Source: an uncultured delta proteobacterium (GTDB lineage: Bacteria; Desulfobacterota; Desulfobaccia; Desulfobaccales; 0-14-0-80-60-11). From it: a stretch of DNA of 64,000 nt. The notes below the pieces were generated by a model. That model did no database searches and was not told the origin of the DNA. It was given only the letters and a program-made list of their open reading frames with translations. Shown here piece after piece: positions 19,493 through 61,780 of this stretch. The stretch covers positions 127,032 to 191,031 of the forward strand of contig CAWCKU010000001.1 in the NCBI GenBank assembly GCA_963796215.1, written 5' to 3'. Position numbers and translations under genes: made by a program. Each line of letters begins with the position of its first letter. Within the stretch, counting starts at the first letter, position 1.

Positions 19493-20410
19493 TCAGGGGG
19501 TCTTTTCCTTGGAGGCGCTGACCCAGCCGGGTTGGACCCGCACCAGGCTGACTCCCTGGGGCAGGCTGACAGAGATGGTGAGGCGGGCGCGCCCACGGCC
19601 CAGGTTCCTGGTATCCACCGCAGCCTTGACATCCGCGGGCTTCAAGTCCTTCACCCGGGGCCAGGGGCCCTGGACGGTGACGGCCACCTGGGCCGGCTGC
19701 AGCCGGGCCGGGCCGGGCTCCGGGAGCACGGGAACCCCGGAAAGGGTGCGAATCAGGGTCTTGGGCTGGATGTCCAATTCCGCCAGGATGGGAATCTGAT
19801 CCTTCAGGGTGAGGTGGAGGTTTTTGAAATCCAGGTCGGTGGCCGTGATGGTCAGTTCGGTGAGGCGGCGCAGGTCGATGGGATGGGTGGGAATGAATTT
19901 GAGGTCGGAGAGCTCCGGCAGGGGACCGCTGACCGTGACCTGGTCCGGCCGCGTCTTGGCGTTGACTAATTCGTAGCCTTCCGGAGGATTGCCGGCCAGC
20001 ACCGGTTTAATGGGCAGGGTGGCGCTGATGGTGGGCGACAGATTAAGAGTAAGGGGATTGGGCTGAATCCGGGTCACCACCACGCCGCGGGGGAACGAGA
20101 AGCTGTTGGGCCCCAGATAAAAGGTATGGGGGCCGCTCTTATAATTGGCCAGATCGATGGTCTGGGTCAGGCGGGTTTGGGACAGTTTGTTGACTATGGA
20201 CCGGGGGCCGATGACCCGGACCTGCAACTCCGCCGGGATTTCGCCGGTAATGACCATCTTGGCCGGCAGGTTGACGAACTCCAGGGCCATATGCAGGCTG
20301 GTTTCGGTGCGTTCTTCACCGCTGACGGCAAACCACAGGGCCAGCGCCAGGAGCAGTGACAGGAGTTTGAGGGCTTTATGACGCCCTAAAGAAGCGAGCC
20401 ACTTTTGCAA
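19493..20410 (-). CDS. cdaR: YbbR-domain protein (CdaR-type regulator of diadenylate cyclase)
   Basis: An N-terminal TM is followed by repeated YbbR-like beta modules. It overlaps the cdaA 3' end by 35 nt, matching the conserved cdaA-cdaR arrangement. Confidence 0.8.
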   Translation of the reverse strand: MQKWLASLGRHKALKLLSLLLALALWFAVSGEERTETSLHMALEFVNLPAKMVITGEIPAELQVRVIGPRSIVNKLSQTRLTQTIDLANYKSGPHTFYLGPNSFSFPRGVVVTRIQPNPLTLNLSPTISATLPIKPVLAGNPPEGYELVNAKTRPDQVTVSGPLPELSDLKFIPTHPIDLRRLTELTITATDLDFKNLHLTLKDQIPILAELDIQPKTLIRTLSGVPVLPEPGPARLQPAQVAVTVQGPWPRVKDLKPADVKAAVDTRNLGRGRARLTISVSLPQGVSLVRVQPGWVSASKEKTP

Positions 20411-37461: not shown

Positions 37462-38853
37462 TCATCTGGCCCGGAGACCGGGGAAGATCTTCCCGGGATT
37501 CATGATCCGGTTGGGGTCGAAGGCCCGCTTCAGGCGCTGCTGCAAGGCCATGGCCGCCTCGGAGAGCTCCATCTTCAGGTACGGGGCCTTGGTGAGGCCG
37601 ATGCCGTGCTCCCCCGACAGGGTGCCGCGCAGCTCCCGGGTCAAGGCAAAGATATCCACCACGGTGGGGTTCACCGCCTCCCGTTCGGCGTCGACCTTGC
37701 GGTCATATAAAACATTGACGTGGATGTTGCCGTCCCCGGCGTGGCCGTAACAGGGGATGATCAGGCCCCGGCGGCGGGAGATTGCTTGCAGGCCGTCAAT
37801 CAAGGCAGGAATTTCCCCCAGCGGCACCACCACGTCTTCGCTCACTTTGTTGGGCTTCACCTTGAGCAGGGCCGGCGAAATGACCTTGCGGGCCTTCCAG
37901 AGGTTGTCCGTCTCACCCGCGGTCCGGGCCCGGAGAACGGGTTTAGCCCCCTGCTCCCGGCAGAAGCGGGCGATACCCGCGGCCCTTTCCTCCACATCCC
38001 GGGGATGGCCGTCCACCGCCACCAGCAGCAGGGCCGCGGCCGCTTCGGGCACCTTAAAGGGCAGCAGCTCCCGGACGCAGCCCAAGGTGACCCGGTCCAT
38101 GAATTCCAGGGCAGTGGGGGCGAGGCCCGCGGTGAGGATTTGGCCCACCGCCTGCGCCGCGGCCGCGAGCGTCCCGAAGCCTGCCGCCAGGGTCTGCCGG
38201 GCCGCGGGCTTGGGCGCCAGCTTCAGGATAATGCGGGTGATCACCCCCAGGGTGCCCTCCGACCCCAGAAACAGCCGGGTGAGGTCGTAGCCCACCACCC
38301 CCTTCATGGTGCGGCTGCCGGCGTCGATGATTTCGCCGGTGGGCAAGACCACGGTGAGCCCCAGGACGTAGTCCCGGGTGACGCCGTATTGCACCGCCAC
38401 CGCGCCGCCGGCGCACTCGGCCACGTTGCCGCCGATGGTGCAGAACTCGGCGCTGGCCGGGTCCGGCGGATAGTACAGGCCCTGGTCTTCCACCGCTCTT
38501 TTCAACCGGCCCAGGATGACTCCCGGCTCCACCACCGCCACCAGGTCGGCGGGGTTGATTTCCAGGATGCGGTTCATCCTGGTCAACACCAGGACCACCC
38601 CACCCTCAATGGGCACGGCGCCGCCGCTGCGGCCGGTGCCCGCCCCCCGCGGGGTGACGGGGAAGCGGTGCTCATTGGCCAGCCGCACAATCCGGGCAAT
38701 TTCCTCCGCCGAACCCGGAAAAACCACCGCCTCCGGCGCGTGCGCCTGGTCGGTGGCATCATAGGCATAGGTCCAGCATTCCTCCGGCGAGGTAAGGACC
38801 TGCTCCGGGCCGACAATAGCCTCAATTTGACGAATGACGTTTTCGGGAATCAT
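37462..38853 (-). CDS. FAD-linked oxidase (GlcD / D-lactate dehydrogenase family)
   Basis: MIPENVIRQIEAIVG.. and FAD_binding_4 signature VTPRGAGTGRSGGAVP. The C-terminal oxidase domain ends ..RAFDPNRIMNPGKIF. ATG at 38853 is preferred, because the track's upstream extension runs through REP palindromes. Confidence 0.85.
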   Translation of the reverse strand: MIPENVIRQIEAIVGPEQVLTSPEECWTYAYDATDQAHAPEAVVFPGSAEEIARIVRLANEHRFPVTPRGAGTGRSGGAVPIEGGVVLVLTRMNRILEINPADLVAVVEPGVILGRLKRAVEDQGLYYPPDPASAEFCTIGGNVAECAGGAVAVQYGVTRDYVLGLTVVLPTGEIIDAGSRTMKGVVGYDLTRLFLGSEGTLGVITRIILKLAPKPAARQTLAAGFGTLAAAAQAVGQILTAGLAPTALEFMDRVTLGCVRELLPFKVPEAAAALLLVAVDGHPRDVEERAAGIARFCREQGAKPVLRARTAGETDNLWKARKVISPALLKVKPNKVSEDVVVPLGEIPALIDGLQAISRRRGLIIPCYGHAGDGNIHVNVLYDRKVDAEREAVNPTVVDIFALTRELRGTLSGEHGIGLTKAPYLKMELSEAAMALQQRLKRAFDPNRIMNPGKIFPGLRAR

Positions 38854-38883
38854 GAAGACAAATTGACTGATGCTTCTTCTTCT

Positions 38884-39026
38884 GGTTCCCAAGCTGTGCT
38901 TGGGAACCCCCAATTGATTGCAAAGCTTTGCTTTGCCAAGCATATCTATATATTAGCGGGTAAGCTCCAGGAAAGCCCAAGCGCAGCTTGGGCAATAATG
39001 GCGTTCCCAAGTGCAACTTGGGAACG
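38884..39026. repeat. REP-like palindromes, family 2 (three copies)
   Basis: GGTTCCCAAGC-tgt-GCTTGGGAACC (38884-38908), GCCCAAGC-gca-GCTTGGGC (38975-38993) and CGTTCCCAAGT-gca-ACTTGGGAACG (39002-39026). Confidence 0.85.
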
Positions 39027-39051
39027 AGATAAGGAACTCTGACCTCTCAGG

Positions 39052-39944
39052 TCATCTTTTGATTACTTCCGCGCCACTCGACGCGCCGCCCGGCGAGCCG
39101 CCCATCTTGCCCAATTCGATGAAGGGGATGGCTCCTCCAGAGACTTGCGGTACAATCCCGTTCCATTTCTCAATACCCTTGTACTGCACCAGGATCGGGG
39201 TGATCGACTTTGACAGGGCATCATTGGCTTGGGCCTGTCCCTGAGCCACCACCAGAATGGATTGAGCCTCGCCTTTGGCCGTGGCCACCTTTTGCTGAGC
39301 TTCAATCTCGCGTTGGGCCAAAACCTGTTTCTGGGTTTCGACCTGCTGCTGGGCCACCTGCTTGGCCTCGATGGCCCCTTCATATTCGGGAGAGAAGCGG
39401 ATATTGGCAAAGTAGATGTCATCGACGATGATGTGATACCTCTCCAGATTATCTCCCAGTTTCTTCATCGCCCGCTGCCGGATCTCCTCCCGTTTGGGAA
39501 GAATCTCCCCGATCGGGTAGGTCGGCACCACTTCCTTGACGAAGTCGTTGAAAGCCGGGTCGATCACCTTGTCGGCAAAATCGAGCCCCACTTTCTGGTA
39601 AAGGTCATTGACATAAGCGGATCGATGTGGAAGTTCATCATGCCCGTCATCTTCACATTCTGGTATTCCTTGGAAGAGGCATCGATCTCCCGGAACGGAT
39701 GGGGTTGCACCTTGACATCCACCTTGATGACTCTTTCGGCAATGGGCACCATGAAGTTGAGCCCCTCCCCCAGGATTCTCTTCTCTACACTCCCCCACCA
39801 GAGGGCGACCCCCCGGTGGCCGGCCGGGACGATGACAAAGGTGCTCCAGGCAATGATCAGGACGACGATGAGCCCAACGATAATTACCACATTGCGTGGA
39901 TTCGGCTTTTTGAAATCAGCTAGGTTTATTACTCTTTCCGGCAT
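39052..39944 (-). CDS. SPFH/band 7 (prohibitin-like) membrane protein, one frame disruption
   Basis: A GGGAGGGG SD precedes ATG at 39944. An N-terminal TM is followed by VIVPAGHRGVALWWGSV.., then a coiled AEAKQVAQQQVE.. region. Pieces 39564-39974 and 39052-39798 change frame near 39600-39640. Confidence 0.85.
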
Positions 39945-40144
39945 TGTTTCACCCCTCCCGGGTGTCTTAACCAAGATTATTTGCTACCTATCTGCGTCTG
40001 TCCCCCAGCGGGGCCCCGAAGCTGTTTACCCGAACCTAAACCCGCCAACGACCCGCTGCTCGGGGCAACCCTGCTCCTGGAAAGTATAATAGCATAAGTC
40101 TCTGAAAAAAAATCAATTTTCACGCTCGAGATTCGGCAGACCCG

Positions 40145-41277
40145 TCACAGCAAGCAGGCCCACCGGGCTCTCTCGGCACTTTCGATACGCAAAGCGCTAT
40201 CTGACTGGTTGTGCCTTTCAATGATCGCGACTGCATCTGAGGTGAATCGTCCGGATGTCGCGATTACATGCACGTCTACACGTGGCGGCTCCCAGATCTC
40301 ATCTGTTCTCGAAGCAAAGCGATTTCTGTCGGACCGACACTCTTGCTTAACCAGTGCCTGCATTGGATGATAACTCGTTGTCGTGATTGTTCCACCGAGA
40401 GGATCTGCATAAACTCGATAAACTGACTAAATCTCTGCCTCGGTCGGGGGCGTTGTCTCATCAACCACTCAGGATTCTCGTAACCATGTTCAGAAGTTAT
40501 CAATGCAAATAGGAGTCGCTCGAAGTCCTCAGGGATTAGGGTTTCAAGAAGCTTTGTAGCGACCGGACCTCGAGGTCTGTCTTATGAGGAGTGACCCTAG
40601 GTCCTCGACTTCAACAGGTATAGGTTCTCTTTCACCATAAAGTGACTTCCTTAATCCGGCTTTGACACTCGGCCAATCGAATTCGATTATATCGTGCAAG
40701 TCATTGAGCATTCCGAAGTGCATGTGACGCTGCAGGTCGGACCATCTTGGGGGCTTTGATACGCTGCTGCCAAGCAAGGTATTTATCTGGGCCACGTTGT
40801 TCTTCAATTCATCGAAAGTAGAGCTATCGACGGTCTTATATGGATTGAGTTTCCTGCTGAAGAATTTGCGACAGCTCTCTCAAGTTACCGTTGATTGTGT
40901 CTATCAGTTCAGTGAGCGCGTTCGCGAATCAACTCGCGGCGCTTTTGGTTGAAGCGATAGCGATACTCCCGAAGAAGCCTTGCTGGTTCGCTAATCCGAC
41001 GCTCTACCGAAACTATGCATTCGAATTCCCCAACCTCTTGTGCATCGAAGCGATTCTGAGCAATTTCATCCAGATCCATCAATACGATTTTTGGCTTCCA
41101 TTTATCTATTTTCGGCAGTGATGCAAGCAATGAATTGAATCTCCGACAATTGTCTTCATACTCGTAGTTTTCGCTGAAGGCAATACCTTCGGGAATTGCA
41201 GATTCAATCTCAGCCAACACCTTCTCAATCTTAATCAGGTTGGCTTCTGCGGATCTCAAAGTGCCGTAATGCTGCAT
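40145..41277 (-). pseudogene. Mrr-like (PD-(D/E)XK restriction-endonuclease domain) gene, multiply frame-disrupted
   Basis: Four track ORFs alternate between two frames, and a third frame carries ..APDRGRDLVS... Joined fragments read ..LIPEDFERLLFALITSEHGYENPEW..APDRGRDLV..RVIIQCRHWLSKSVGPTEI..PPRVDVHVIATSGRFTSDAVAIIERHN. Sampled lines give about 42-47% G+C. Confidence 0.5.
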
Positions 41278-41351
41278 TTAGAGGACTGTCAATCATTCAT
41301 AGCCTCGATCTATACTAGATAGCATATTAATGATAAAGCAAGCCATTATAT

Positions 41352-41413
41352 CTACAACATATTCTTCTTCGCCAGACTGAAGTACCGTGACGGCTGATGA
41401 TCAGGTGGTCGTG
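41352..41413 (-). repeat. Orphan copy of the radC 3' end (direct repeat of 44204-44266)
   Basis: 59 of 63 aligned positions are identical to the last 20 codons plus stop of radC (3 substitutions, 1 indel). It translates as ..HDHLIISRHG... Confidence 0.9.
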
Positions 41414-41438
41414 CCCCGTCGCAGCCGCTGACGACCGA

Positions 41439-44105
41439 TCAGAACGCCCAGCGCAGGCCGGCGTTGATGGCATGGGCGGTGGTGGTGCTCCGCCCCACCT
41501 CGGCGTTATAATCCAAATAGAGTGAATAATTCTGCTTGAGCAGGGTGACGCTGGTCCCCACCACCGCAAAGTCGCGTTGGGGCTTGTCGGTCTGAAAATT
41601 AAAGGTGCTGCCCGACTGGCTGAGGCGGGCGTCCAGGCCCCGGGCGTCGTTGGAGAACTCGTGCTGGTAGGTGGCGTAGACTTGGGGCACCACCTTGACC
41701 GGGCCCCGCTGGAGGGGGACGGCGACCTTGGCGCCCACCCCGGTTTGCAGTGATTCGGCGTTCTGGGGGGAGACCTTCAGGTCCAGGGCACCGGCCCCGC
41801 TCTCCGTAAAACCGTCCACCCAGAGGCGGGAGTAGGCCAGGGAAGCCACCGGGGTCAGTACCAGCCCGCCGGCCTTCAGGTCGTAGCCCGTCTCGCCGTA
41901 AGCGTTGAACTGGTTGCCGGTGGGCGAGCTCTTGGCATTACGGTTAAGGCTGCCGAAGGTAAGATCTCGCCCCAGGTCGTAGAGATTCAGGGCATAGCCC
42001 AGGGAGCCGAAGGCGTAAAAGGACTCGGGCAGGTAGGCGGCGTAGGCCGTGAGGGGCCAGGTGTTAGCTTCAACATTGCCTCCGGAGCCGTGAAAAGCGG
42101 CCCCGGTGTGGCTATAGCCGGTGGCCAGGCCCACCAGAAGGTGGTCCCGCACCCGGTAGTCAGCCCCGGCGGTGAAGCCCGCCAGGGTGAAGTCAAAGCC
42201 CGTCTGGTTCAGCGAGGACTTCTGGGACCCGAGGATGAGGCCCGGGTCGAGATAAAGGCCCCAGCGGGTTTCGGGCGCTGCCTCTTTCTTGGCGGCGATC
42301 AGCCCGGTAAGGCTGGCGGAGTTGTAGGCCAGCATCAGCCCCGCGGTCCGGGAGTAACTGGGGTTGAAGGAGCCGGGCAGGCCTCCCGCGCTGTCCATTT
42401 CCGGGGCGCCGAACCGGAGGTTGGTGATCCGGCGGGAAAGGTTGCGCATTTGCAGGTTGGCCCCGGCCAAGGCCAGGGCGGGGAGGGCGGTCGCCTTATC
42501 CGGGGAGATCTGCTGGAAGGCGTTGGCCACCAAGCCGCCGCTGGAGAGACCGTCGATGGCATTTAAAGCGGTATTCAGATCCCCGGCGGCACTGGTGGCC
42601 ACGCTGTTGAGCCTGGCGCCCACGTTCGCCTGGTTGCGGGTCAGGGTAAGCGCCGGGTTGGTGTAGCTGCGCAGCACCAGGAGATCGAAGGTATTGGGGG
42701 TGTATAGCGGCTGCCAGTACAGCGTGGGGGTAATAAACCGGTTGGCCATGGTGGCGAAAGTGCCGTTGACGCCCTGCGCCGCGCTGATGACCCCATGAAA
42801 AAGCTGGTTGCCGAGAGGCAGGTAACCGCCTTGCAGCACCGGGATGAAGGCGCCATTGAGGCTGGCGGTCCCCCCGACCTCGATCTTGGGGAAATTTGCC
42901 GAGGAGGAGAACCCTACGGCCAGGGTGCCGCCGGCGGTCTGGGTGTAGTTGCCACCCATGGAGAGGCTGCCCCCCAATAACGCTAAAGTGCCCTGGCTGC
43001 CGGGATTGGCCGCCAGCGTGAGGTCATGGGTAATGGTGTGGGTGCCGCCAGTCTGGATGAAGGTGCCGTTGCCGATAGCGCCGATAACTTCATCCTCGAC
43101 TGAGAGGTTGCCGCCGCTCAGGTTATAAGTGCCGTTACTGTTGCGCCCATCACCCAGACTGAGGCCGCCGTTTATTTTATTAACGCCGTTGCTCTGGTTG
43201 AAGACGCCGGTCCCGAAGACGCCGACGATCTCAAAGGGGGCCGTGAGACTGCCGTTGCTCAGGTTATAGGCGCCACTGCTATCACCCCAATAGCCCAGAT
43301 AGAGTCCGGAGTAAATATCGGTTTTTATCACCGTATTGCTGCCACCGCTTTGATTGAAAACGCCGCTGCCGTGTAAGCCCACATATTGACGGACCTGAGA
43401 GAGGCTGCCAGCGCTCAGGTTATAGGTGCCGCTGCTGCCGGCATACAATCCCAGATAGGAGTAGCTGCTAACGCTAGTGGTACCGCCGCTCTGGTTATAA
43501 GTGCCGATAGAGCCTGGGAGGAGGCCGATATTTAAGACGACCATGGAAAAGGCACCGCCACTCAGGTTATAGACGCCACTGCCGCCGGCAGAGTAACCCA
43601 GATTAAGGTTGCCGGTATTGGTACCGCCTGTTTGGGTGAAGACGCCGCTGCCGCTGTCGCCGATAACTTCATTGCCGCCAGAGAGGTTGCCGCCACTCAG
43701 GTAATAGACGCCACTGCTGCCGGCAGAGTAACCCAGAGTGAGGTTGCAGGTATTGTTGCCGCCTGTTTGGGTGAAGACCCCGCTGCCGCTGGCGCCGATA
43801 ATTTCATTGCCGGCTGAGAGGTTGCCACCGCTCAGGTTATAGGTGCCGCTGCTGCCGGGAGAAAAGCCCAGATACAGGTTGCCGGTCAAGGTATTGGTGA
43901 AGCCGCTCTGGTTCAAGTTGCCGGTAGATAAGTTACCGACATAGATATTATTAAAGGTAACGTCGTGGCTGACTGAATAAGTGTCGCCGCCGTCGACGAC
44001 GAGATCCGCGCCCCGTGACCAACACGTGGTCAGCAAGACCGTCAGCACCAGGGCCGTCCCCATTAACCACCAATGTTGGCCGTTAGGTCTTTCTATTCGG
44101 CTCAT
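41439..44105 (-). CDS. Autotransporter (type Va secretion): repeat-rich passenger plus C-terminal beta-barrel
   Basis: Intact 888 aa with a signal peptide. About 9 degenerate roughly 40-aa units carry GSSGTYNLSGGNLS..IG.SGSGVFTQTGGTNT. The C-terminal barrel ends ..INAGLRWAF. Confidence 0.85.
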   Translation of the reverse strand: MSRIERPNGQHWWLMGTALVLTVLLTTCWSRGADLVVDGGDTYSVSHDVTFNNIYVGNLSTGNLNQSGFTNTLTGNLYLGFSPGSSGTYNLSGGNLSAGNEIIGASGSGVFTQTGGNNTCNLTLGYSAGSSGVYYLSGGNLSGGNEVIGDSGSGVFTQTGGTNTGNLNLGYSAGGSGVYNLSGGAFSMVVLNIGLLPGSIGTYNQSGGTTSVSSYSYLGLYAGSSGTYNLSAGSLSQVRQYVGLHGSGVFNQSGGSNTVIKTDIYSGLYLGYWGDSSGAYNLSNGSLTAPFEIVGVFGTGVFNQSNGVNKINGGLSLGDGRNSNGTYNLSGGNLSVEDEVIGAIGNGTFIQTGGTHTITHDLTLAANPGSQGTLALLGGSLSMGGNYTQTAGGTLAVGFSSSANFPKIEVGGTASLNGAFIPVLQGGYLPLGNQLFHGVISAAQGVNGTFATMANRFITPTLYWQPLYTPNTFDLLVLRSYTNPALTLTRNQANVGARLNSVATSAAGDLNTALNAIDGLSSGGLVANAFQQISPDKATALPALALAGANLQMRNLSRRITNLRFGAPEMDSAGGLPGSFNPSYSRTAGLMLAYNSASLTGLIAAKKEAAPETRWGLYLDPGLILGSQKSSLNQTGFDFTLAGFTAGADYRVRDHLLVGLATGYSHTGAAFHGSGGNVEANTWPLTAYAAYLPESFYAFGSLGYALNLYDLGRDLTFGSLNRNAKSSPTGNQFNAYGETGYDLKAGGLVLTPVASLAYSRLWVDGFTESGAGALDLKVSPQNAESLQTGVGAKVAVPLQRGPVKVVPQVYATYQHEFSNDARGLDARLSQSGSTFNFQTDKPQRDFAVVGTSVTLLKQNYSLYLDYNAEVGRSTTTAHAINAGLRWAF

Positions 44106-44203
44106 AACTCATCTCGTTCGGTAAGAAGTCGGCGCATGAATGTCAGCCCTCCGTCTAAGAAGATCTGGGTCCATGATAAAAACTTTCCGAAAAGTTGCTA
44201 GAC

Positions 44204-44893
44204 CTACAACAGATTCTTCTCCGCCAGGCTGAAGTAGCCGTGACGGCTGATGATCAGGTGGTCGTGGACCGTCAGGTTGAGGGCGTGGGAGGCCTTCACC
44301 AGGGAGCGGGTCAGTTCCAGGTCGGCAGTCGAGGGGGTGAGGTTGCCGCTCGGGTGGTTGTGCACCAGGATCAGCCCGGTGGCCTTGTGCTTCAGGGCCA
44401 GTTCCAGGACCTTGCGGGGGTAGACCACCGTCTGGTTGACCGTGCCCTCCTGGACGATCTCTTCGGCCATGATTTCGTTCTGGCTGTTGAGGAAGACCAC
44501 CCGGAACTGCTCATCGGCCAGGCCCCCCATGCTCGTGCGGCAGTAATCCACCAGGGCGCTCAGGGATCCGATCTTTTCCCGAGCCAGGATCCCGTCCTTC
44601 AAATAGTATTCGGCGCAGGCCTTCACCAGGCGGATGAGCACCGCGGAGTATTCCCGGATGCCGGGAACTTCCAGCAAGGCCTCGGGAGTGGCGTCCAAGA
44701 CCCGGGGAAAGGAGCCGAAGTGGGCGATCAGCTGCTTGGCCAGGGGCTTGACGTCGGAGTAGGGAATGGCAAAGGTAAGCAGCAGCTCCAGCAGCTCGTA
44801 GTCTTGCAAGGCTCCGGGCCCGCCCTGGAGGAAGCGCTGCCGGAGGCGGGCGCGGTGGCCGTGGTAATGCGGCTTCTCAGGCTTGGGTGGCAT
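44204..44893 (-). CDS. radC: RadC-family JAB/MPN domain protein
   Basis: HhH region then ILVHNHPSGNLTPSTADLELT (JAMM motif). The ORF is an intact 229 aa. Confidence 0.9.
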   Translation of the reverse strand: MPPKPEKPHYHGHRARLRQRFLQGGPGALQDYELLELLLTFAIPYSDVKPLAKQLIAHFGSFPRVLDATPEALLEVPGIREYSAVLIRLVKACAEYYLKDGILAREKIGSLSALVDYCRTSMGGLADEQFRVVFLNSQNEIMAEEIVQEGTVNQTVVYPRKVLELALKHKATGLILVHNHPSGNLTPSTADLELTRSLVKASHALNLTVHDHLIISRHGYFSLAEKNLL

Positions 44894-45112
44894 GGTGTGA
44901 GGCCTCAGCGGATCAATTCAAGCTATCTTCTTGTTAAATCATTTTACCAATAATTTCAAATTATTTATCTTCATGGGAGCCTTCGGATTTCCAACCGGCC
45001 AGCGGGGTAATTAACCGCGAGTCCTTACTTCGATAAATCTTGCCTTTTTAGAATCATCGCTTTATTCTTATTTGAGAAATCATTTAACAGCCGCCCGACC
45101 TGTTTAATTAGC

Positions 45113-45907
45113 ATGGAGAGGAGGACAAGTATGTATCGACGTTTAAGGCTGATACCTCTGATTGCTGCTGCAGTAACCTTGCTCATGTGGGTTCAAGCGG
45201 CCGGGGCCGCAGCTCTCCTTTTCAACCGGGGGATGCCGATCTACAATAATAACCTGAGTCCTCCAAGTAACTTAAACGGCACCACTAATTCAAACCGTTC
45301 TAATTTCTCCAGCAGCAATACCTATTCATCCCAACCGACCACCTATCAGGTTACAGGGGATGATTTCAGCATCGGCAAAACGGGTCAAAAATTCCAAATT
45401 AACACGGTGCGCGTCTGGATGATATATGGCGTGCCGTCTGGTCAATATGACACCAACCCCCTTACTCCTCCGACTTTTGCGCTGACTTTATGGGTGGGCC
45501 CGGCCGGCGGCACTATACAGCCCTTGGCGGCAGCGCCTGTGCTCACTCGGATTTGGTATTCCGACGGAGAGAACTATCAGCGTACTGCTGACGGCGCCTG
45601 GCGAGGCGTTTGGCAGCTTGATTTCCCGGTGAACCTGAATATTGCCGGCGGCCAAAAATATCAATTTTTCCTGGACGGCATGTTCCACAATGCTTCCGGC
45701 GTGTGGCAATCTCCCAGCCTGTGTCTTGCCAAGGAATCTCTGAGCAATAATCCCCACCAGGACGGTGCGGACAATCAATACCTGGCATTGACTCTGGCCA
45801 ATGGGACTCCCACCGGTTCACCGAGTTACGTTACACCATTCGACGCCAATGTCCAAATTTTTGGAAGCGTTAATGTTGCCCCCTTGGAGCTCCTTTTGTC
45901 AGATTGA
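45113..45907 (+). CDS. Secreted hypothetical protein, 264 aa
   Basis: Signal peptide LRLIPLIAAAVTLLMWVQAAGAAA, then an Asn/Ser-rich linker. No domain recognised. The start may be the ATG at 45131. Confidence 0.6.
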   Translation: MERRTSMYRRLRLIPLIAAAVTLLMWVQAAGAAALLFNRGMPIYNNNLSPPSNLNGTTNSNRSNFSSSNTYSSQPTTYQVTGDDFSIGKTGQKFQINTVRVWMIYGVPSGQYDTNPLTPPTFALTLWVGPAGGTIQPLAAAPVLTRIWYSDGENYQRTADGAWRGVWQLDFPVNLNIAGGQKYQFFLDGMFHNASGVWQSPSLCLAKESLSNNPHQDGADNQYLALTLANGTPTGSPSYVTPFDANVQIFGSVNVAPLELLLSD

Positions 45908-61111: not shown

Positions 61112-61780
61112 TTATGGCCTATGGATTCTCATAGGCCTTTCTTTTGTGTGTGACTCCATGTGAGACTTTTCTTCCAGGCTCGCCATCACATCCCGTAGTT
61201 GCGGATCGATCACCTGTAGGTATCTCTCGGTCGTGGCCTTGCTCTGGTGCCTGAGCAGGCGGCTGACCTGGGTTATCGAAAACTTCTGTTTGTCGGCCAG
61301 GTAGCTGGCCACATAGTGCCGGATCGCATGGAAACCGAAATGCCTGACGCCGGCCTGCTTGCATATGGTACCCATGAGTTTTGGCCGGTGCATGTACCTG
61401 GTGCCGGTTTTTGGGTTCAGGAACACCCATTCATTTTGGCTGCGCTTTTGCCATAGCTGCTGGAGAGTCTCGTAAAGAACCTCATTCATCGGCAGCTTAT
61501 CCCAGGCCCAGGAGCCATCCCGGCGTTTGCGGGTCCAGAGCCGGACCGTTCGCTCCTGGAAGTTCACATCTTCCCACTTCAGCCGCAGGATTTCATCAAC
61601 CCGGGCCATGGTGTGGTAGATGACCAAGAGTAATGGCCTTTCCGGACCAGCCGCCAGGATTATCTTGGCCATCTCTTCAGGCGTGGGTATCTGCCTTTGG
61701 AACCTTGGCTCCGGCATTCTCTCCAGGAAATGACATGGGTTTTCACTTATGAGCCGCCGCCGATAAGCCCAGGTAAACAA
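61112..61780 (-). pseudogene. Tyrosine recombinase/integrase, catalytic domain only (N-terminally truncated)
   Basis: 222 aa carrying the catalytic R (MARVDEILRLKWEDV), HAIRH and ..TTERYL (Tyr nucleophile). No arm-binding or core-binding N-terminal domain is present. Its 3' end lies 16 nt from the tRNA-Ala 3' end. Confidence 0.75.

Follow-up and report, generated by a model that had tools for sequence, protein, structure and literature searches.

The window analysed here is a stretch of 64,000 nt from an uncultured delta proteobacterium (contig CAWCKU010000001.1 of assembly GCA_963796215.1), in which a short direct copy of the 3′ end of radC is separated from the intact radC by an autotransporter gene (AT). 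The source genome (G000) is a metagenome-assembled genome (MAG) of 3.70 Mb in 27 contigs with 84.6% completeness and 4.8% contamination. An earlier interpretation of the DNA letters alone, called the sequence-only reading in the following, had taken this arrangement as left by site-specific integration into the radC 3′ end.

The radC repeat and the autotransporter gene

The intact radC (44204–44893, minus strand) encodes a protein of 229 aa with matches to PF04002 (E = 9.9e-42), PF20582 and NF000642 (205 bits). Orthologues with 80–90% identity are present in all members of the genus, and the gene is the conserved upstream flank of a variable gene slot, for which it probably serves as homologous anchor. 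In the alignment, positions 41352–41413 (62 nt) and 44204–44266 (63 nt) are identical at 59 of 63 positions, with three substitutions and a 1-nt deletion, in direct orientation. The latter segment (copy B, minus strand) consists of the final 20 codons and the stop of the functional radC, reading HDHLIISRHGYFSLAEKNLL before the stop codon. The former is a radC 3′ remnant, also on the minus strand and frameshifted by the 1-nt deletion; a block of 29 nt (41385–41413) is identical in both. Directly 3′ of the two stop codons the sequences are unrelated. The whole-genome search of all 3.70 Mb returned only these two copies, and since the second one scored E = 2.2e-21, the repeat is not due to chance. 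The repeat was thereby confirmed exactly as the sequence-only reading had described it, and the search for further 63-nt copies that it had proposed found none.

AT (41439–44105, minus strand) encodes 888 aa with a signal-peptide-like N-terminus, a repeat-rich passenger and a C-terminal β-barrel (TIGR01414; PF03797 with E = 1.9e-56 at residues 626–867). As the sequence-only reading had stated, the gene is intact and is the only credible one between the copies, where integrase and transposase genes are absent. Profile searches found no recombinase domain in the 888-aa protein either. A spacer of 98 nt (44106–44203) separates the AT start from the radC stop, and 25 further positions (41414–41438) connect the AT stop with the remnant. 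A scan of positions 40000–45200 for promoters and terminators gave no signal above the shuffled expectation.

AT is the single autotransporter gene in G000 and was previously regarded as an unexpected cargo, with the recommendation to compare the codon and k-mer usage of 41439–44105 with the flanks. That comparison points the other way: the composition of AT looks native, with a GC content of 0.615 overall and 0.78 at third codon positions and a tetranucleotide distance that, like that of cooS, lies at the 94th percentile. PF03797 is found in 42 of the 69 genomes of the family, so an autotransporter as cargo is not odd for this lineage.

The order radC, AT, remnant is found identically in G011, a MAG of the same genus from Lac Pavin (JAPLJC010000234.1) that was assembled independently and represents a sister species; DNA identity between the two is 90–92%. 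The remnant of G011 holds 99 nt of radC homology in an open frame ending in LAEKNML and a stop. Because the layout with this 99-nt remnant is shared, the insertion is older than the split between G000 and G011. Compared with G011, 84 nt are absent in G000 where the AT stop joins the remnant, namely 37 nt of radC homology and ~47 nt of spacer, and this deletion is bounded by the microhomologies GGTCGTG and AGTGGTG. Due to the longer remnant kept by G011, the 62-nt boundary in G000 must be considered secondary and does not mark a crossover point. The 98-nt spacer is nearly identical in G011 and did not match the spacers behind radC in relatives whose gaps are short and unfilled; it travels with AT.

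The G011 layout also bears on the suspicion that the repeat arose during assembly, which the fragmentation, incompleteness and contamination of the G000 MAG could nourish. The two copies are diverged, the junctions are unique sequence and the same structure occurs in the independent assembly of a different species. An assembly artefact is therefore very unlikely, to the point of being negligible.

The AT orthologue of G011 has 91–92% DNA identity to that of G000; its codon 529 is an in-frame stop, and one 47-aa passenger repeat is deleted. Between both genomes, the identities at codon positions 1, 2 and 3 are 0.937, 0.945 and 0.910 for AT versus 0.978, 0.991 and 0.922 for radC, which suggests that AT may be evolving under relaxed or diversifying constraint. 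No AT orthologue was found in any member of the genus other than G000 and G011. In a donor search of 185k species genomes and the metagenomes of the Joint Genome Institute (JGI), the homologues besides that of G011 were at most ~52–69% identical and none of them adjoined radC, and an exact 30-nt scan of metagenome contigs for the flank of the remnant gave zero matches.

The radC–GlcD slot across the family

The slot is closed on its downstream side by a conserved gene for a GlcD-like FAD-linked oxidase (37462–38853, minus strand; PF02913, PF01565). In each of the family's 14 genera, radC and the GlcD-like gene share a contig with a gap between 84 nt and 6.5 kb, and the ancestral layout consists of radC, a spacer of 0.2–0.7 kb and GlcD. 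Among the other members of the genus the gap measures 0.23–6.5 kb; the short gaps comprise 232–734 bp and the longer ones contain 1.9–3.7 kb of unrelated DNA. The comparison of occupied and empty radC loci that the sequence-only reading had called for thus has a clear result, as short, unfilled radC–GlcD gaps do exist in relatives. Relative to the ancestral layout, G000 carries an insert of 5.3 kb (38871–44203) composed of an SPFH module, a low-GC block, the remnant and AT. The notion of AT as sole cargo could not be upheld, because the slot also contains the SPFH gene and the decayed low-GC block. The annotation is corrected in that there is neither an island nor an att site, and AT is one of several independently acquired pieces.

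The cargo found in filled slots of the family is diverse. Defence-type genes include DarT-DarG, a TIR protein, AAA_21 and AAA_14/DUF4143 ATPases and a methylase with a HARE-HTH protein. Enzymes are represented by an Exo_endo_phos nuclease, glycosyltransferases of the GT2, GT87-like and PMT_2 types, an AMP-binding enzyme and an amidohydrolase with a patatin; MscS with an SH3 protein, WG-repeat proteins and an RCC1-repeat protein complete the set. Several of these recur in genomes that are not sisters, such as PMT_2 in G019, G079 and G080, MscS with SH3 in G053 and G055, Exo_endo_phos in G047 and G049, and GT2 in G001 and G044. Nearly all slot cargo is co-oriented with radC. The slot behaves as a small hotspot for defence and envelope genes.

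Tyrosine or serine recombinases were not found in any of the ~25 filled slots (including those of G000, G011, G058, G053, G051, G080 and G079), and the sole mobility-like match in a slot is a weak one to Y1_Tnp (24 bits) in G070. The genome of G000 contains 28 matches to the tyrosine recombinase family PF00589, of which the nearest in the window (61211–61642) is ~17 kb away.

Individual anti-phage-type genes could be located in three slots: DarT-DarG in G009 (L024 5449–7153), a double-TIR gene in G047 (L054) and an AAA_21 ATPase gene in G042 (L057).

Displaced radC tails and how they may have arisen

The family was searched with DNA and peptide queries for radC-tail remnants. Counting that of G000 and G011, at least five independent events with a remnant behind an intact radC were found, all in direct orientation and with remnants of 66–287 nt. 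The remnant of G058 (287 nt, 97% identity) is separated from radC by the amidohydrolase and patatin genes and that of G053 (108 nt) by MscS and SH3; G051, with SH3 in between and a remnant of ~78 nt, represents the same event as G053. In G080 a PMT_2 gene lies between radC and a remnant of 157 nt, and in G079 two WG-repeat genes are followed by a remnant of ~66–85 nt and then by PMT_2. The cargo-side junctions fall at differing positions of radC (−99, −108, −157 and −287), no common motif was detected among the junction flanking sequences, and in every remnant the homology ends within a few bases past the stop codon.

The differences between remnant and intact tail in five pairs were 50 synonymous and 23 non-synonymous ones (binomial P ~8e-13 against the ~28% synonymous changes expected without constraint), and the remnants of G011, G058, G053 and G080 keep an uninterrupted RadC C-terminal frame ending in a stop. 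The synonymous excess together with the open frames indicates that the divergence mostly arose while both copies sat in functional radC genes. The two copies are thus alleles from different genomes, of which one tail was resident and the other arrived with the cargo. This pattern is of importance for another origin that has to be considered, namely a local tandem copy of radC, either complete or just its end, within the genome, followed by deletion and neutral decay, with AT already resident. The remnant does carry a lineage-specific His codon (CAC/CAT) that is also present in the radC of G000 and G011, as expected for such a local copy. However, mainly synonymous differences and open frames are not predicted for the neutral decay of a dead copy, the DNA behind the two stops is unrelated, the AT orthologue is absent from all other members of the genus, and donor-type layouts such as that of G055 described below speak against it as well. 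The assumption that the copies were identical at birth was dropped given the ratio of 50 to 23. As the divergence was acquired in functional genes, simple local duplication with decay is ruled out, and for intragenomic duplication in general we see only a slim chance.

When collinearity was compared, DISPLACEMENT was visible in related genomes of the genera g9 and g3. In g9, the remnant and PMT_2 of G079 are collinear with the intact radC tail and PMT_2 of G080, and reciprocally, the remnant and downstream DNA of G080 are collinear with the intact tail of G079 and the DNA upstream of its WG genes. In g3, G055 has the order radC–MscS–SH3–GlcD and lacks a remnant, which is a donor-type layout, and G053 has the MscS and SH3 genes of G055 and behind them a remnant and an additional ORF of 403 aa. 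In the g9 and g3 cases, a unit of the radC 3′ part and the donor downstream DNA has been set behind the radC body of the recipient, and the recipient tail with its downstream DNA has been shifted along.

For G000 we lean, with a confidence only a little better than even, towards a homology-anchored, one-sided illegitimate insertion, i.e. a sequential displacement resembling homology-facilitated illegitimate recombination (HFIR), at an integrase-free hotspot. DNA of a related genome carrying the 3′ part of radC and the immediately downstream AT would have been spliced in, and the 62-nt copy would be the original radC 3′ end, displaced and left behind. The left join could have been formed by homologous recombination within radC, and a homologous left join leaves radC seamless and intact. 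The right join would be illegitimate and located ~99 nt ahead of the resident radC stop. The event took place in the common ancestor of G000 and G011, inside the integrase-free gene-turnover slot between radC and GlcD that is used family-wide, and the loss of 84 nt at the junction was a later step in G000. A hallmark of HFIR is a microhomology of 3–10 bp between donor end and recipient at the illegitimate joint. Of the features expected for HFIR, the seamless anchor-side junction, visible as intact radC, and motif-free junctions at variable positions on the other side were observed. The HFIR mechanism itself, the identity of the donor and the entry route of the DNA are what we infer.

The same final structure could be reached by a different route. 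A circularised fragment with the last ~100–290 nt of radC and adjacent cargo, integrated by a single RecA-dependent crossover in the resident tail (Campbell-type insertion), would give exactly the topology observed, namely intact radC, cargo and a 5′-truncated tail. The tail would then be duplicated on both sides of the cargo, and the unit could later loop out and re-insert by homology alone. The variable remnant lengths, the motif-free junctions and the absence of recombinases are in agreement with such a crossover, and the GlcD 5′ fragment and SPFH arrangement of G011 described below fits as well. Nevertheless, circularisation of random linear fragments would be required, and linear HFIR explains the reciprocal layouts of G079/G080 and G053/G055 equally well. 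We therefore regard the Campbell-type route as possible but rather unlikely.

Gene ends other than that of radC were affected, too. In G000, contig C10 has a second copy of the final ~165 nt of an APH-family kinase gene 1.9 kb downstream, and a DEAD-box helicase gene separates the two copies (C10:17817–17986 and 19716–19890; L031 2818–2987 and 4717–4891), so that the scar has the architecture seen at radC. On contig C23, the first ~180 nt of lepA are found again, 97% identical, 3.2 kb upstream, and the two copies enclose an IS1595-family transposase gene (C23:160759–160944 and 163955–164141; L032). G011 contains a copy of the 5′ end of the GlcD-like gene (144 nt, 87% identical to the intact gene; L015 6846–6989) that is absent from G000 and is placed between the SPFH gene and a two-component system. 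The scar type is not specific for radC, as the gene ends on C10 and C23 and the GlcD of G011 are affected as well. Genome-wide, ~40 short direct-repeat pairs were listed; their classification by longest ORF was too noisy in this GC-rich genome, and three pairs were checked by hand. The GlcD fragment is a second, independent gene-end scar of the same slot: in a one-event model for both scars of G011, the gene order is not obtained by any single crossover of a circle or linear molecule, so that two events are required. When the whole family was searched with the GlcD N-terminus, the GlcD 5′ scar turned up in G011 only.

Several observations weigh against the HFIR-like displacement. The final structures produced by HFIR and by Campbell-type circular insertion are identical. 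A donor genome with radC–AT and no remnant was not found among the 185k species genomes and JGI metagenomes, and with 62–102 nt the remnants are too short for assignment to a lineage; that of G011 agrees about equally well with G024 (90/102) and with the radC of its own genome (89/102). The ratio of five radC-side remnant events to one on the GlcD side could point to radC specificity, although it is not significant (binomial P ~0.11). Finally, the competence of the organism is uncertain, with DprA present and a ComEC match containing three in-frame stops. This match is the sole one to ComEC (PF03772) in the genome (C24:42229–43092); its stops are two TGA and one TAA, and either the gene is broken or the assembly contains errors.

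The site-specific integration proposed by the sequence-only reading held in part. An insertion scar, a target gene kept whole, a displaced tail and unfilled relatives are all present, whereas the att site could not be substantiated, as an integrase is missing and the junctions are variable and free of motifs. What would be needed is an element without integrase or with a decayed one, similar to a cis-mobilizable element (CIME) or a cassette, which carries its own radC tail and is served by a recombinase encoded elsewhere. Comparable elements would be e14 and phage 21 at icd, or Tn554 with its att554 site in radC. The prophages at icd encode an integrase next to the att site, and their crossover always takes place at one fixed core. 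Like at icd, the incoming DNA at radC supplies the replacement tail, so the target gene stays intact, and the displaced tail is a pseudo-fragment in direct orientation. Unlike at icd, the radC slot has neither an adjacent integrase nor a fixed crossover core.

Tn554-family unit transposons target att554 in the radC of staphylococci, and 3′ radC remnants have been reported for them (10.1101/2020.09.30.320143). The target gene and region, the 3′ part of radC, are thus the same as in our case. In contrast, Tn554 possesses tnpA/B/C, uses one insertion site, truncates radC and occurs in an unrelated phylum; in G000 transposase genes are absent from the locus and radC is intact with its 229 aa.

That radC is a known target is in favour of a site-specific element, as are the direct repeats around the cargo with restored target gene, the identical block of 29 nt, the recurrence of at least five strikes at the radC tail and the many tyrosine recombinases of G000; the synonymous bias is also compatible with a functional tail borne by the element. 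On the other hand, no recombinase lies in or beside the ~25 filled slots, the repeat boundaries vary (99, 108, 157 and 287 nt) without shared core or motif, and units of tail and cargo match ordinary radC-downstream layouts elsewhere, one of them without remnant (G055). Moreover, the same scars occur at unrelated genes and the composition of AT is native. Taken together, integration by such an element appears unlikely to us.

A more far-reaching variant would regard the radC 3′ end of this Desulfobaccales-like family as the dedicated entry point of an as yet unrecognised cassette system without integrase, the cassettes bearing their own functional radC tail and being stacked, shuffled and inserted by a trans-acting recombinase or by RecA-dependent loop-out and re-insertion. 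The sole hints are the 5:1 bias towards radC-side scars and the co-orientation of nearly all cargo, and we consider this variant quite improbable. If true, the system would be a chromosomal analogue of the integron platform built on a housekeeping gene. Returning to the HFIR-like displacement, the repeat is an old and ordinary insertion scar made by recombination and not the att site of a mobile island or a new mobile element, and the element is not mobile today.

Comparison with displacement arrays and further features of the slot

Sequential displacement in type VI secretion system (T6SS) effector-immunity clusters of V. cholerae and in the orphan arrays of Rhs and contact-dependent inhibition (CDI) loci has been attributed to HFIR (PMC5361080), and HFIR was studied experimentally by de Vries and Wackernagel (2002) and Prudhomme et al. 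(2002), as cited in PMC6382021. As in the T6SS/Rhs arrays, a conserved upstream anchor gene is found at the radC slot, the cargo enters directly behind it, and the resident 3′ part is displaced as an orphan. An integrase is not involved in either, and arrays can be stacked, as in G079 with its WG genes, remnant and PMT_2. In contrast to the V. cholerae arrays, the anchor here is the housekeeping-type radC and the cargo is functionally unrelated to it; the orphan is a gene tail of 62–287 nt and not a whole immunity gene, and the mechanism at radC is deduced.

Hotspots of horizontal gene transfer that are free of mobile genetic elements (MGEs) and driven through recombination in the core genes at their flanks (Oliveira et al. 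2017, PMC5635113) and the minimal mobile elements of Neisseria (Saunders and Snyder 2002; Snyder 2007, as cited in PMC3787668) share further traits with the radC–GlcD slot. Two conserved flanks, radC and the GlcD-like gene, enclose a content that differs among close relatives and recurs in distant ones, mobility genes are absent, defence and envelope genes are frequent in the slot, and one flank is annotated as repair-related. The difference to the MGE-free hotspots is that a double homologous crossover leaves no scar, whereas several radC events left a duplicated gene end. The duplicated gene end left behind implies that one end of the insertion was not homologous.

Taken alone, the locus is what horizontal gene acquisition routinely leaves behind. 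Across the family, it offers a clean natural case of one-sided, homology-anchored insertion, with at least five events at one gene end, allelic copies and preserved reciprocal layouts, a process otherwise known mostly from laboratory transformation and toxin-immunity loci. In addition, the radC–GlcD slot of uncultured Desulfobaccales-like sulfate reducers is a place to seek defence genes that are specific to strains (DarTG, TIR, AAA ATPases, restriction-modification) as well as genes for the cell envelope.

The remaining parts of the G000 slot are as follows. Homology to most relatives stops at 38814–38870, directly before the left slot border (38871–39034), which contains two palindromes similar to repetitive extragenic palindromic (REP) elements at 38885–38907 and 39003–39025. 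This REP-like palindrome, GTTCCCAAG-N5-6-CTTGGGAAC, has ~40 copies in the genome, two of them exactly at the left slot border, and a similar palindrome follows radC in G004. Next to the border lies the SPFH/Band-7 gene module (39035–40165, minus strand) with an ORF at 39052–39798 (PF01145). The SPFH gene is present in a single copy in G000, beside GlcD, and its ORF of 248 aa is shorter than that of G011 with 303 aa. In G007, G003 and G002 (L019, L021 and L023) the gene is found at three different unrelated loci with 89–91% identity, compared with 82–86% for the surrounding core genes, and it thus seems to behave like a relocating module.

The low-GC block (40166–41351; GC content 0.47) contains short decayed ORFs in alternating frames, and its tetranucleotide distance is at the 99.5th percentile. 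It is older foreign cargo downstream of the remnant. Its ORFs had no match in Pfam, NCBIfam or PADLOC, and an Mrr-like nuclease as its origin was rejected, as PF04471 gave no match at E ≤ 1. In place of this block, G011 has genes for a PAS-histidine kinase and a LuxR-type response regulator and the 144-nt GlcD fragment. On the other side of radC, between radC and cooS, the plus strand carries an ORF of 264 aa (45113–45907) with a clear signal peptide, a GC content of 0.52 and no match in Pfam, NCBIfam or PADLOC. Since G011 has only ~220 nt at this position and no other member of the genus matches, the ORF represents a second, G000-specific insertion beside radC.

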